Of a stretch of DNA of 39,506 nt, positions 1-6,000 are shown in pieces. The position numbers are program-made. The stretch's first letter is position 1. Each line of letters begins with the position of its first letter. Source of the stretch: a virus; the UHGV virus genome UHGV-0354001; one strand, 5' to 3'.

Positions 1-3000
1 AGCTATATCTCATAACCGCCGCTAACTATATACGGTTAGCGGCAATTAGGGTTGAACATTAAAAATCAGCCTGACTCGGGATCAGTTTTTGCCAGATAGC
101 TGAAACGTATTTTGCCTGGTAACGAGCGTCATCAAGTGCATTATGGCGCTCACCTTCGAATGGAATAGCCGTTCTGGCATCGAAGTCTATGGCTTTCCCC
201 AGCTCAACGATTGTGCGTACATCGCGATCGTTGTAGTAACGCCACGGGCAGGTGATCCCCTGCCGTTCGTATGAACGGCGCAAAATCGTGTTGTCGAAGT
301 TGGCTCCATTTCCCCAAACCTGAACAAAAAATTCACCGGAGTTTTCGTCGATAAATTCCCGCAATTGTAACAGTGCATCATCTAACGGGATTTCATCGGT
401 CATAATGGCAGATTGCGCTTCGCGTGATTGCTTAAGCCACCATTTAATGGTGTCCCGATCAATGACTCCGCCAGCAGTTTCCAGATCGATAGTCTTACTA
501 AATTCCGGTCCCACATCTCCGGTTTGCGGATCGAAAAATATTGCACCTATTGAGATGATCGGGGCATCAGGATTTTTTCCCATGGTTTCAAGGTCGATCA
601 TTAGATGGTCACACGTCCTGCTGGTGGATGTGATTTCTTGATGACCGTTCACCTTAATTGAGTGATCTGCCGTCTCGCCAGTTTCATTATCGCTATCGTG
701 ATGCTGATTGCCGCCAGTGTTCTCCTTGTGTGGATGTTCAGCGCCTTCCATTTTCTCCGGATCATTTTCCTGAACTTCAACCTGATTCTCTTCATCGAAT
801 GTTTCCTGGTATGTTGCGTCGCCCATCACCGCGCCACAATCAGGGCAGTTGCCGCCACCGCTCTGACCGCAGGCGGTGCAGACTTTTTCCACTTCCTGTT
901 GCGCCACTGGTTCAGGATGTTTCGTTTCTGGCTCGTTTTGTAACGCATTTGGGCTGTTTTGTTCCGCTTTCTGGCCGTTCTGTTCCGTTTCTTGCTGGTT
1001 CTGATTCACTGAATCGCGGGTTTCAATCCCCTTCACCCATTTCGGATCATTCGGGGCGCTAATCCCTGCAACAAATTCACCACGTGATGCGGCGAGCAAC
1101 TGATTGGCGTCAGGCTGGCTGATATTGGCTGCCTGCATAATTTTCTTTACTTCGTCAGCGGTAACTTTTACCGGTTCTGGTTGTTCAGAATTTTGTGCGG
1201 TATTTGCATTTTGCGGTAAGCCTGTGTATGTGCCATTTTTTCGGGCAAAATATTCTTCTTTTGTGATTTCAGTAGCCCCGGCAGCCAGCGCCTTATCCAG
1301 ACCAGAAAGTTTGTTTGCGCGACCGTATTTTTCGCCGTCCTTATCGGTGAAAAGGAAGTAGAACGGTCCCTCACGCTCTACAGATGGTTCGTCTTCCACT
1401 TCGCATTCGGTTTTTTCGTTGTCCGGCATTGCCGTTTCCACTGCATCAGTTTCTGGTACTGGTGACGGGAGAGTACCAGCTGTGCCCTGATTTGTTCCTT
1501 CGTCATCTTCAAACACGCCCTTGGTAGTCAGGTATTCAGTGATGTATTTGTTCAGTGCTACGGGATCTTTGTGAATGTCGATCGGACGCTCACGGACAAG
1601 GCCAAAAATAGTCTGACGGTCGTAGCGAACGGCATCGGGTTGTTTGCGCATTGATGCGGAAATGCGCTTCCAGTCTTCGCGATCTTTGTCGATAACTTCA
1701 TTTTTTGCCCAGCGATGGATGCTGCCGTCAATGTTTCCGGTATCAATATCGCCAGGCCAGAGAGCGTAGGCCAGTTCTTCATCCAGCGTTTTCCATGTCT
1801 GCTTGTATTCGCGACAAATGGCGGCAGTGACTGGGTTGATTTTTCCTGCTGAGTTTTCAGTGTGCTGTTGATTGACTCTGGCGCGGGCGAGATCAACAAC
1901 AGACGTGTATTTTCCAGTCTCTTTGCGCTCTGCGTCCTGCCGTTTTTTCCAGTTACGTAATTCAGCCTGAATTTCTGGCCATTTGGCACCCGGATTACAT
2001 TTGTGTTTAACCCATCCGATAGCGAACAGTTTGCGTTCCGGATACATAGCGTTAATTTCAGGCGTTTTCATCAGTGCTTCAACGATATGCCCGTCAAAGG
2101 TAGCAACGTCTTCCTGCAGTAATTCCTGCGCGTCAATCGCCATATCAACGGTGATGTTTTCACATGTACCGAACTTAACCAGGACCGCGTTCTGTACTTC
2201 AAGGGACAGCTTGTCAAAATTGACGTTCATCGGATCGGATTCTGGTTCGACCGGAATAAAGGAAGCGGATTCCTCATCCCAGCGGTTTTCCTGCATATAT
2301 TCAGCATCCCAGGAATCGAGGGCAGGGCGGGGTATACCGGGTTTATCCTCGCAAACAAGAAATTTATAAGCGCAGTCCTGAGCAGCCGGATAATGTTCCA
2401 GGAATTGCCAGTGAAATTTTGCGCGGGCGCGACGTTCATCACCGGCTTCAATGGCAGTGGCTACAGCGACTGCACCTTCTTCCTTTATTGCCTGTTCGTC
2501 CGGAATGGCGGCGCAAATAAAGACTTTACTCATTTTGTTTTACCTCATTACAGATTTAAGGGTGAACAAATCCCTGCCATTGCTGGCATATAAGAATGAA
2601 ATCGGATGTTTATTACGGAACTGTTTTAAAGACCTGCCGGGATTTCGCTATTATCCTGGTGAATAACTTTATCGACAGGGTAACAGTTACCGGGAATTTT
2701 CTGTTCGGTTGCTGCAGTCACACACTCCTGCATTGTCCTGTGAACACTGACTGCAATATCAACTGGCTCTCCGGAAACAAGAAAAACTGTCAGAACAAGT
2801 GCAAATGCTGTATTCATTGCCAGCATCCTTTTTGTATCGGACGTAAACGGGCCAGCATTGAAAGAATGCATATTTTATTTAATAACTCCCGTTCGTGTTT
2901 TCTCTTGTTAATGGCATCTTCAGTAAATACAGGGTTACTGATAGTGACACCAATTTCAAAACAACCTTCAGACGTATTAACGTTTGGTAATAACGTTTCC

Positions 3001-6000
3001 ATTATCGCGTCCTCAACAATGAATTTTGTGATGCGGTGCCTGGTGCCTCCAGGTGACGTTAACCAGTTAACAATTAACGCCGGATACAGAGAATCCACCC
3101 ATAACACTGTTTTTGGTTTTAACTGTTCCGCGTGCGCTTAGCCGCATTCACTGCATCACAAAATTCACTTTAAAAAGGGTGGCAGAGCAGTCACGGAGTA
3201 GAACTGATGCCACCAAAGACTACACATGGATATTGTGGCGGGGCTGTCACTTAAGCGTATGGTCAGCCTGACAACCCGGTGTCCTCAAGGGGAAGGAATA
3301 ACCCCGCCATACTTACCGCCGCGCCATTTCGCGGATTGCCACAACCGGAAGCGCACGGTCGAATTAAATTTAACGACAAAGTACAGAGAGACGAGCTTCT
3401 CCGTGTGCTTTCGCGTTATGCTCTGACTTTTCAGAGAAATATCCTTTCAGTAAACTGTCAGTGCCGGATGTTCACCCGTGTCCGGCGCACGCACTCCACT
3501 TCACCCGTGGAGAACTCCTTAATTACCAACCTTAGCTTCGTTGGTTAGCTATTAACGCGGGTATGTAATCATTCTGGCAATGCTTAATGCCGCTGCTTTT
3601 TCCAGATTGGTGATATCCTGCTCCAGAGCGGACAGATTTTCAGCCTGCTTAGCCCTGGCTTCATTGGCCCATTTCAGATCCTGCGCTGCATTAATTTTCT
3701 GGCGCATCCACTCATAAAGTTCATCATCGGTATAGTCTGGCGCGATGATGACGGGTTCTCGTTTCTGCATGTCGGCTCCTTGTGGTTAGCGTTGCCTGCT
3801 TTTAACCACGTCAGGCGAGGTGGTATCCTCTGAGGGGTCTGTTACTCGAGAGGAAATTGGTTATGAGTACAATCAAGTTTTCTTGCCCAGAATGTGGTGG
3901 CGAAGTCTTTGACACATCCTTTAAGCCGCAGGGCTCTGACAGTTTCGCGGGAGCCATCTGCAAAAATTGTGGTCACCTTGTAACTGAAGATGAGTCCTCG
4001 CAGTTCGATGACGAAATCGTTGACAATATCTTCGGTGCACTCACCAGAGACTTTCTGAAGTAAAGGCGCATACCGCTTAGTTACCGCTCTGATAATTCTT
4101 ACCTGTCCGGCAATGGCGCTGATGTCAATATAAAGCGCCATTGCTGCTTCTTTGCCGATCCCGGGATGCCTTCCATTCTGATGTTTGACTTCGCCCACTG
4201 AGAAATCCTCTGTTTCCCCTTAACGCCGGGGTAGCGGAACAAAAACCTGCTGCATAGTTATTAAAGTTGAACCCTGCCGTCATGTTCTTACGCCTCGGGC
4301 TGGCTACTTAACCCCTGACCACTGCCTGGTAACTCGAAGTATTGCCCTGCATTCTGTGGGGCGGGGTGGGTGGCAGGTATATAATGTACTTTGCGTTCAT
4401 TGTTGTAAAGTACTTTTAGTACATTTTGTGTGTAAAAAAATGAGATGGGATAAAGTGAAGCACAAACCCGGAGGAAGGCGCTACCGGATTTATGCTGGTT
4501 TAAGAGGCTTTTTGTTTTTTCTTTCGTGCTAACTCTTCGTAAATTGCATTGTACTTCTGTTTTTTCTCTTCAAGAGTTTTTAAAAGTTCATCTGTCTCAC
4601 TGTCAGGGAGCTCGTCCAGAAGGTCAATGATGATTTTTTGTCTTGGATTTAACTCCTGATAGAAACGTACCTGTCCACTTTCTTCTGTATCCTCTCCCAA
4701 AAGATAGGTTGGTGTTGTTCCTATTAGTGTTGCTAATTCCCTTAATTTCTCCCGGCGAGGAATTGTTTCGCCATTAAACCATTTGCTAACCGCTTTTGGT
4801 GTTAATTTCATTCGACGGGCAATTTCTGCCTGCCTTCCATGTTGTTCATAACCAGCGTTTTCACAGGCTAGCGCAAGCCTACTGGCGAACTCTTTACGCG
4901 CTTTATCTTCATGAACCATGAGTTCAATGATATTCGCTCTTGAATGTACTGTCAGTTCTGTTATAGCATGTACTCAAAGTTCACATTGTGAGGGTGATAT
5001 GAACCAGAAAACACTTGAAGATGTAATCAAAACTGTTCGCGTTGCTGTTGTGGCCGACGTTTGTGGTGTCAGCCAAAGAGCAATCTATAAATGGATGGAT
5101 AACGGAAAATTGCCTCGCACAGAATATACCGGCGAAACAAATTACGCTGAAAAAATCGCTCTTGCATCAAACGGATTATTTTCTGCCGATGCAATTTTAA
5201 CTATTGGCAGGAATAAAACTACTACGAAAAAGCTGATGGGAGTTGATTCATGAAAATCAAGCATGAACACATCCGCATGGCGATGAATGCCTGGGCGCAT
5301 CCGGACGGCGAAAAAGTACCGGCTGCGAAAATTACCAAAGCGTATTTCGAACTGGGGATGACGTTCCCGGAACTGTACGACGACAGCCATCCGGAAGCCC
5401 TGGCCCGTAATACCCAGAAAATTTTCCGCTGGGTGGAGAAGGACACCCCTGATGCTGTTGAAAAAATTCAGGCGCTGTTACCGGCGATCGAAAAGGCGAT
5501 GCCGCCTTTGCTGGTGGCCCGTATGCGCAGTCACAGTTCTGAATATTACCGGGAGATCGTCGAACGACGGGATCGGCTGGTGAAAGATGTGGATGATTTT
5601 GTCGCTGTAGCGATCGCCTGGGGCACCCTGACTAACAGTGGTGGTCAGCCTGGTAATGCTGTTGTTGTGCATTGACCAACAATATTTATACCGGATTTCT
5701 TCCGGAAGTTCGTGGGTAAAGTTCGGTATCAGAAGAGGTGAGTATGGCTAATGCCTGGCTCAGATTGTGGCATGACATGCCAAATGACCCCAAGTGGCGA
5801 ACGATTGCCAGGGTATCAGGACAGCCAATCGCAACAGTGATGGCAGTGTATATCCACCTTCTGGTGAGCGCGTCACGAAATGTCACGACATGTCACGGCG
5901 TGTCACTACGTGGTCACATTGATGTCACGACGGAAGATTTAGCAAGTGCGCTTGATGTGACGGAAGACGTAATTGATTCAATTTTGCATGCAATGCAGGG

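Follow-up and report, generated by a model that had tools for sequence, protein, structure and literature searches.

The virus genome UHGV-0354001 was analysed as one stretch of 39,506 nucleotides (nt), hereafter the window, which carries near its start genes related to the dicBF operon of the Escherichia coli K-12 prophage Qin. They lie on the minus strand in the order ydfC, DicF small RNA (sRNA), dicB, ydfD and exonuclease gene. This region (59-3770) very probably belongs to a lambdoid prophage, as the distal portion of its early-left (pL-type) operon, and is formed by an ordinary dicBF operon and the exonuclease gene. The stretch from ydfC to dicB is collinear with Qin, with a mean column identity of 94% in the alignment to K-12. 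The preliminary description of this DNA had recognized a Qin-like dicF-dicB-ydfD arrangement, and both the gene identities and their order are confirmed. The ydfC gene (3552-3770) codes for a protein identical to K-12 YdfC and is followed by the 3' untranslated region (UTR) that would be the source of DicF (gene and UTR, 3230-3770). DicF itself occupies 3177-3229 and is separated by a spacer near-identical to that of K-12, the dicB 5' leader (3003-3176), from the cell-division inhibitor gene dicB (2814-3002). DicB has 62 amino acids (aa), of which 55 are the same as in K-12, the seven differences being mostly among the last 10 residues. It scores 127.4 bits against Pfam PF05358 (DicB; cut-off 27, 1.7e-37) and 132.7 bits against NCBIfam NF049927 (CellDivInhibDicB; cut-off 100, 3e-39). 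Directly after it comes ydfD (2626-2817), whose ATG overlaps the dicB stop codon as ATGA. It codes for a small membrane lysis protein of the DUF1482 family (88 bits, cut-off 25, 3.6e-25) that shares 59 of 63 residues with K-12. A 92-nt gap with a GAGG ribosome-binding site leads to the exonuclease open reading frame (ORF; 59-2533), whose 824 residues are matched from end to end by the PHROG 2082 'exonuclease' family. The excision and integration genes xis and int would come after it, just past window position 1. Downstream of ydfD, K-12 has only the pseudogene ydfE, which is collinear with residues 1-~256 and is then cut by IS2E; the gene is intact in the window, as had been proposed.

The closest match to the module, at 99.8% identity, is in genome FDAARGOS_1286, where the corresponding genes are annotated as exonuclease (WP_115203371.1), DUF1482, DicB and YdfC. 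This copy lies at the left end of a prophage, beside tRNA-Ser and mtfA and just inside DUF4224 and a frameshifted integrase gene. The prophage, which carries replication, Q, lysis, head and tail genes, is 99.2% identical to the window over positions 1-14413 and differs from it in the late region. A rarity of the intact module, implied earlier, is contradicted by its distribution, which shows it to be ordinary in lambdoid phages and prophages. At least 80% of window 1-3600 is covered in one place in 3455 of the 5426 complete E. coli genomes, often in multiple copies. The whole 3.6-kb module with the full-length exonuclease is also found in deposited phage genomes (Tritos, mEp460_ev081, PhiR42_1, HannyBb and Stx2a/PPompW phages) at 91-94% identity to the window; DicF is annotated in Tritos. 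A sample of dicF-holding IMG/VR loci was scored where at least 3.6 kb lay downstream. The DEDDh exonuclease domain is present in 63 of these 63 loci, and 47 have the exact architecture of the window including dicB and ydfD. The intact module is the norm and the K-12 copy the degraded exception: the module itself is known prophage biology and the K-12 ydfE fragment is the broken copy of a very common gene. DicF is matched in 4022 of the 5426 genomes, and outside K-12 no DicF annotation stands under the RefSeq matches listed. Only two points of the locus are less ordinary: its DicF belongs to a minority allele whose 5' end has been replaced, and the exonuclease is built as a patchwork.

The Rfam model RF00039 detects DicF at 3177-3228 over its full length (1-52) with 61.1 bits (gathering threshold 48, E = 3.7e-11). 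The element is flanked by ydfC and dicB, shares their strand, is collinear with K-12 and ends in a Rho-independent terminator hairpin and U tract. Its 5' arm corresponds to nt 1-15 (3215-3229) and the hairpin to nt 16-52 (3178-3214), followed by UUUUU. The alignment bears out the earlier remark that the 5' region is unlike that of K-12. The arm reads CCAUGUGUAGUC-UUUGG in the window and UUUCUGGUGACG-UUUGG in K-12, and the window has ~14 nt fewer just upstream. The replaced block covers the 5' arm and the sequence just before it (K-12 ...CGCCCUCUGUUAUCAAUUUUCUGGUGACG-UUUGG, window ...UAUCCAUGUGUAGUC-UUUGG). The hairpin has a predicted free energy (dG) of -15.8 kcal/mol in the window and -15.9 kcal/mol in K-12. 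Among 14 distinct DicF sequences 98.8% of the hairpin pair cells are paired, with one compensatory pair: pair 18-50 changes from C-G to U-A, while pair 21-47 changes from U-G to C-G. Nucleotides 30-49 are the same as in K-12 and the U tract is unchanged. Note that the dicF-dicB spacer (2983-3186, minus strand) also gives a sub-threshold match to the STnc100 RNA (32.7 bits, gathering threshold 47). The CACCNGGAGGCACCNGGCAC hairpin is common to this spacer and to a full STnc100 copy (14579-14787, plus strand, 131.7 bits) downstream of a tRNA cluster.

The two arms of DicF have distinct targets. K-12 genetics assign pairing with ftsZ and pykA to the 3' arm and with xylR to the 5' arm (PMC5069750). 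Duplexes were predicted for each arm with shuffle controls (300 shuffles for xylR), as RNAduplex predictions with the full-length RNA gave long, uninformative duplexes. The K-12 5' arm forms 12 pairs with xylR (dG -16.7), and none of the 300 shuffles is as good. The window arm reaches only -7.1 in a different register, a value equalled by 79% of shuffles. By duplex prediction, the K-12 13-bp xylR pairing is thus lost and the window arm lacks complementarity to xylR (+8..+21). The 3' arm keeps its pairing with pykA (dG -25.9 against -26.4 in K-12) and with manX (-28.1 against -33.9). These predicted losses and retentions agree with the published genetics of each arm, and the suggestion that the altered 5' end changes targeting gains computational support, with the qualification that the predicted ftsZ pairing is weaker. 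Together with Hfq, and assuming the K-12 behaviour, the 3' arm would pair with the ftsZ, pykA and manX mRNAs. It is predicted that the window DicF still blocks division and that xylR repression is lost. A pairing of the new 5' arm (3216-3229) with manX +20..+33 was considered as a gained target (12 pairs, dG -16.0, 1% of shuffles as good). It was dismissed as probably due to chance because several targets had been tried and the natural variants L026 U6C and L080 C12A would break it. This manX site adjoins the predicted 3'-arm site at +34..+53. Within the window, the complement of the new 5' seed is found nowhere besides dicF itself.

The window-type allele occurs in 211 of the 5426 complete E. 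coli genomes. About 120 sampled DicF copies are divided into ~95% with the K-12-type 5' arm and ~5% with the window type, which has the internal variants CCAUGCGUAGUC and CCAUGUGUAGUA. Among deposited phage genomes, 22 contain DicF, in every case with the K-12-type arm and never with the window type. Carriers usually have 2-4 dicF copies, and in 34 of the best 40 carrier records there is at least one further dicF match. That the allele is decaying and non-functional, rather than re-targeted, is improbable, even if several observations point that way. Both within-class polymorphisms sit in the 5' arm, and another dicF copy could supply the function in those 34 of 40 listed carriers. Neither the 5' block nor the sequence around the RNase E site (AUCAA/UUUCUG) of K-12 is retained, and the predicted pairing with the ribosome-binding region of ftsZ is weakened, from -27.9 kcal/mol in K-12 to -21.3 kcal/mol in the window, with 1% and 18% of shuffles as good, respectively, so that the window value does not stand out from shuffles. 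The altered RNase E site and the weaker ftsZ pairing also count against the preferred reading of the operon, and with the site context gone the 5' end given here for the window DicF is putative. The hairpin is however upheld by its compensatory and U-G to C-G changes, nt 30-49 and the U tract are intact, and the 211 genomes that retain the allele have intact genes beside it. We read the window DicF as a minority allele that is viable and has an altered 5' target arm; it should resemble DicF3, a laboratory mutant that still filaments cells and is less toxic (PMC5069750). K-12 genetics already assign xylR regulation and part of the toxicity to the 5' arm. The allele is a cheap, testable case of a horizontally carried sRNA that changes its target set arm by arm.

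In K-12, a 53-nt DicF is produced from the ydfC 3' UTR by termination at its own hairpin and an RNase E cut at its 5' end, and an alternative 3' end (72-nt DicF) results from RNase III cutting the full-length operon RNA (PMC9438474). Assuming the same pathway, termination at its hairpin and cuts by RNase E and RNase III would free the window DicF from the ydfC 3' UTR.

The carboxyl terminus of the exonuclease (aa 643-814, positions 92-607) matches Pfam PF16473 (Rv2179c-like) with 227.4 bits (cut-off 27, 1.3e-67). The five DEDDh residues D647, E649, D747, H797 and D802 align with D7, E9, D119, H186 and D191 of the phage T4 exonuclease DexA, and all are conserved. The DEDD-type domain anticipated from the sequence is thus recovered by a formal search. 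Among PDB sequences the only match is T4 DexA (8KEL), with 6.3e-7 for the single sequence and 8e-15 for the family profile; the same searches did not recover the RNase AS/Rv2179c structure at E <= 1. The last gene of the module most likely encodes an active DEDDh 3'-5' exonuclease acting on DNA like T4 DexA, the substrate being favoured because DexA is the sole solved relative found by sequence while no RNase AS structure is. A consideration on the other side is that the Pfam family takes its name from an exoribonuclease, and sequence by itself does not decide between DNA and RNA. An exoribonuclease like RNase AS/Rv2179c, directed to host or operon RNA, would accord with the naming of the family for the 3'-5' exoribonuclease Rv2179c and with some RefSeq copies annotated as '3'-5' exoribonuclease'. 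The PDB searches yield only the DNA exonuclease DexA, and this alternative is given little probability.

Bacterial DexA homologues have been claimed to be anti-T4 nucleases specific for 5-hydroxymethylcytosine (5hmC), named 'HREX', and one of them, the stand-alone E. coli protein EcD, protects against T4 (PMC12153337). A similar 5hmC-recognizing enzyme aimed at T-even phage DNA would be in line with the homology of the domain to T4 DexA, its conserved catalytic residues and the aromatic Y767 at the position of DexA W152. The equivalent of DexA D169 is however A786 (in a loop whose alignment is uncertain), and the tetramer residue D90, an alanine in EcD, is kept here as D719. The exonuclease thus has neither the D169 equivalent nor the loss of D90 that go with W152 in the HREX description. 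EcD also differs from the exonuclease, since its cloning primers encode a protein that starts with MIDTET... and ends with ...TIPETYD. These primer sequences rule out that EcD corresponds to the carboxyl terminus of the window protein. An HREX-type function is accordingly held to be quite unlikely, and a DexA-like enzyme acting on DNA remains the preferred assignment of the domain.

The region preceding the nuclease domain had been described as 600 amino-terminal residues awaiting a homology search. This is amended by the finding that residues 262-623 align to residues 278-588 of RecE from the Rac prophage (38% identity, E = 6e-64). Identity to Rac RecE rises to 66% over residues 475-623 (665-1111; BLASTP, RecE 454-588). 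The alignment ends where the PD-(D/E)XK nuclease of RecE starts. The 66% stretch holds a four-cysteine knuckle, CxxC-x7-CxxC (C552/C555/C563/C566, CTACGQSGGGNCPDCG, 836-880), which is conserved in RecE. The zinc ribbon announced in the preliminary description is therefore present by direct reading, the Pfam DZR model giving only E = 0.097. The amino-terminal region (1505-2533) is composed of two domains, residues 1-222 and 240-343, with a fold to which no function is assigned. Its 343 residues model with a predicted local distance difference test (pLDDT) of 85.7, while the single-sequence AlphaFold model of the full 824-aa protein (pLDDT 34.5) is uninformative. The model has no informative structural relative. 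The region displays no conserved catalytic-looking motif, only A36 and W195 being near-invariant. The Pfam labels PF27430 and PF27432 sit on the amino-terminal and central parts of the family. Directly 3' of the stop codon there is a perfect 9-bp inverted repeat, GCCGCTAAC-N8-GTTAGCGGC (window ~18-44, minus strand). The lack of a U tract argues that it does not act as an intrinsic terminator; RNA processing or protein binding ahead of xis/int are conceivable roles for it.

An exhaustive search of representatives with aa 1-380, on which the architecture counts rest (a search with aa 1-450 gave only near-identical E. coli fragments), yielded 180 clusters. In their 64 long members, Pfam Exonuc_VIII is present in 19, DUF3799 (PDDEXK-like) in 11 and the Rv2179c-like domain in 10. 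The domain table reveals that YdfE-type and RecE-type amino termini each occur with either head. Where a dicF-linked locus has a complete DEDDh head, the amino terminus is of the YdfE type in 54 cases and of the RecE type in 12; one of the latter combines an amino terminus 71% identical to that of K-12 RecE with a head 99% identical to that of the window protein.

Phage records use the name exonuclease VIII for this gene. Under that name it would be a RecE-type recombination exonuclease, simply an exodeoxyribonuclease VIII, as the RecE alignment of residues 262-623 might suggest and as might its location between a division inhibitor and xis/int, the same place as recE in Rac. The protein is however without the PD-(D/E)XK domain, with no match to RecE 600-866 and no Pfam Exonuc_VIII, and its DEDDh head has the opposite polarity. 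It reaches 273 bits, in the central region only, against the NCBIfam cut-off of 1269, and falls outside the RecE class (NF007259, PF06630). No RecT, Bet, Erf or other single-strand annealing protein is annotated in the early region of this prophage, and neither RecT nor a RecE-type nuclease is matched in any of the 63 dicF-linked IMG/VR loci. The two-component Red/RecET organization is likewise missing, the exonuclease being followed by DUF4224 and integrase and not by an adjacent annealing protein. Taken together, a RecE-type recombination role appears very improbable. On a more tentative reading, the DexA-like head is the one always linked to dicBF and never accompanied by an annealing protein, from which a role other than recombination would follow, such as DNA scavenging or exclusion. 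Working without a strand-annealing partner, the exonuclease is probably an enzyme that degrades DNA ends or host or foreign DNA, not a Red/RecET-type recombinase.

The DicF and exonuclease results can tentatively be joined in a single interpretation, namely that a re-seeded DicF paralogue and an exonuclease drawn from a shuffling family represent two natural module swaps. In the first, a block replacement would have removed the xylR-pairing 5' arm and kept the 3' arm devoted to division and carbon metabolism. In the second, a RecE-type central scaffold with zinc ribbon would accept interchangeable amino-terminal domains and nuclease heads of opposite polarity. If this is true, DicF would either act like DicF3, producing filamentation without the extra toxicity, or have gained new targets. 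The exonuclease is among the most widespread uncharacterized E. coli prophage enzymes (about two thirds of complete genomes). A decision between a DexA-like DNA scavenger, an exclusion nuclease and an RNA enzyme would close an annotation gap and would also clarify the role of the non-catalytic two thirds of RecE-family proteins.

The functions of the remaining genes were defined in K-12. DicA represses the dicBp promoter (PMC10448788). Through MinC, DicB blocks division and the DNA entry of phages that depend on ManYZ, and by way of ManYZ it makes cells ~100-fold resistant to phages lambda and 434 (PMC6832061). The lysis protein YdfD inhibits IspG (PMC8835842). In the window, a gene for an HTH_3 repressor without S24 peptidase domain (4500-4919, Pfam 1.8e-9) lies upstream of the operon on the same strand, and a YdaT-family gene faces the other way. 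The sole promoter candidate is a sigma-70-like site (4381-4409) downstream of the repressor gene (site and gene, 4381-4919, minus strand). By analogy with K-12, the HTH repressor would silence the operon in the lysogen and transcription would follow once repression is lifted. DicB would then bind MinC, block the Z ring and inactivate ManYZ, the route of lambda DNA entry, and YdfD would act as a membrane lysis protein. Some points go against this picture of a working operon. Every function at the locus is assigned by homology to K-12, the repressor shares only 29% identity with DicA, the candidate promoter is a weak consensus match (9 of 12 positions), and with its frameshifted integrase the copy of FDAARGOS_1286 may be defective. 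Note that a small ORF coding for a putative Zn-binding protein (RefSeq 'ECs_2282 family', 3863-4063, plus strand, weak zinc-ribbon Pfam hits) lies inside the early-left operon on the opposite strand, at the place of Qin ydfA/ydfB; operon transcripts would be antisense to it.

The module had been proposed to be a repressible toxicity or superinfection-exclusion cassette. That such an operon is repressible, toxic and phage-excluding is borne out for the K-12 homologues by the three studies quoted above, and an HTH_3 repressor gene lies upstream here; a dedicated exclusion cassette is not supported. In its stronger form, this proposal states that the cassette is domesticated and kept mainly for the host, with the exonuclease degrading incoming phage DNA. 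The DicB resistance to lambda and 434, the protection against T4 by the E. coli DexA homologue EcD and the retention of the module by 3455 of the 5426 genomes, frequently with more than one copy, would fit such a benefit. The module nevertheless holds a normal early lytic operon position and occurs in deposited phage genomes, so that use by the phage explains its retention. The operon is repressed in the K-12 lysogen (PMC10448788), and PADLOC assigns no defence system, its one match being a generic DEDDh hit (4.1e-6). Maintenance for the host is thus rather unlikely, and an ordinary phage early operon remains the preferred view of the locus.

Further along the window, the nin region (~8625-11485, plus strand), located through the annotation of FDAARGOS_1286 (99% identical), holds cargo genes for QueH (epoxyqueuosine reductase), an NgoMIV-family restriction endonuclease and a Dcm-type cytosine methyltransferase; a sok-like RNA match (9358-9538) extends over the beginning of the methylase gene. 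Three tRNA genes, STnc100 and a match to the anti-Stx2 sRNA AsxR (14254-14843) lie downstream of Q, an arrangement shared with Stx phages. The 6 kb past the tRNA cluster match SASA esterase/DUF6645 and lysis genes, with no stx gene among the annotated matches listed.

Comparison shows the module to be of a known kind. T4 DexA, the only solved structure found by sequence, has all DEDDh catalytic residues in common with the window exonuclease. DexA (227 aa), and apparently EcD, are stand-alone proteins, whereas this domain is here the carboxyl-terminal head of an 824-aa protein in which the Asp proposed for 5hmC recognition is absent (PMC12153337). The kilR-recE-recT region of Rac similarly has an FtsZ-ring inhibitor followed by a large exonuclease and xis/int, an exonuclease with homologous central region and zinc ribbon, and a YdaT-family gene in the right part of the immunity region. 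The difference is that in RecE the carboxyl-terminal domain is a PD-(D/E)XK 5'-3' nuclease and recT comes next, whereas the window protein has a DEDDh 3'-5' head and no annealing partner. The deposited lambdoid phages share the whole 3.6-kb module at 91-94% identity and differ in the DicF 5' arm, which is of the K-12 type in 22 of 22 and of the window type in none. The Qin dicBF operon (ydfABC-dicF-dicB-ydfD-ydfE' in K-12) is related to the module by the same order and strand, 100%, 89% and 94% identity for YdfC, DicB and YdfD, respectively, and a conserved DicF hairpin and 3' arm. In the window, ydfA and ydfB are absent and replaced by the opposite-strand Zn-binding ORF, the repressor diverges strongly from DicA and the DicF 5' arm is replaced. 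The K-12 ydfE represents the first ~256 codons of the exonuclease gene, cut there by IS2 and carried at full length in the window.

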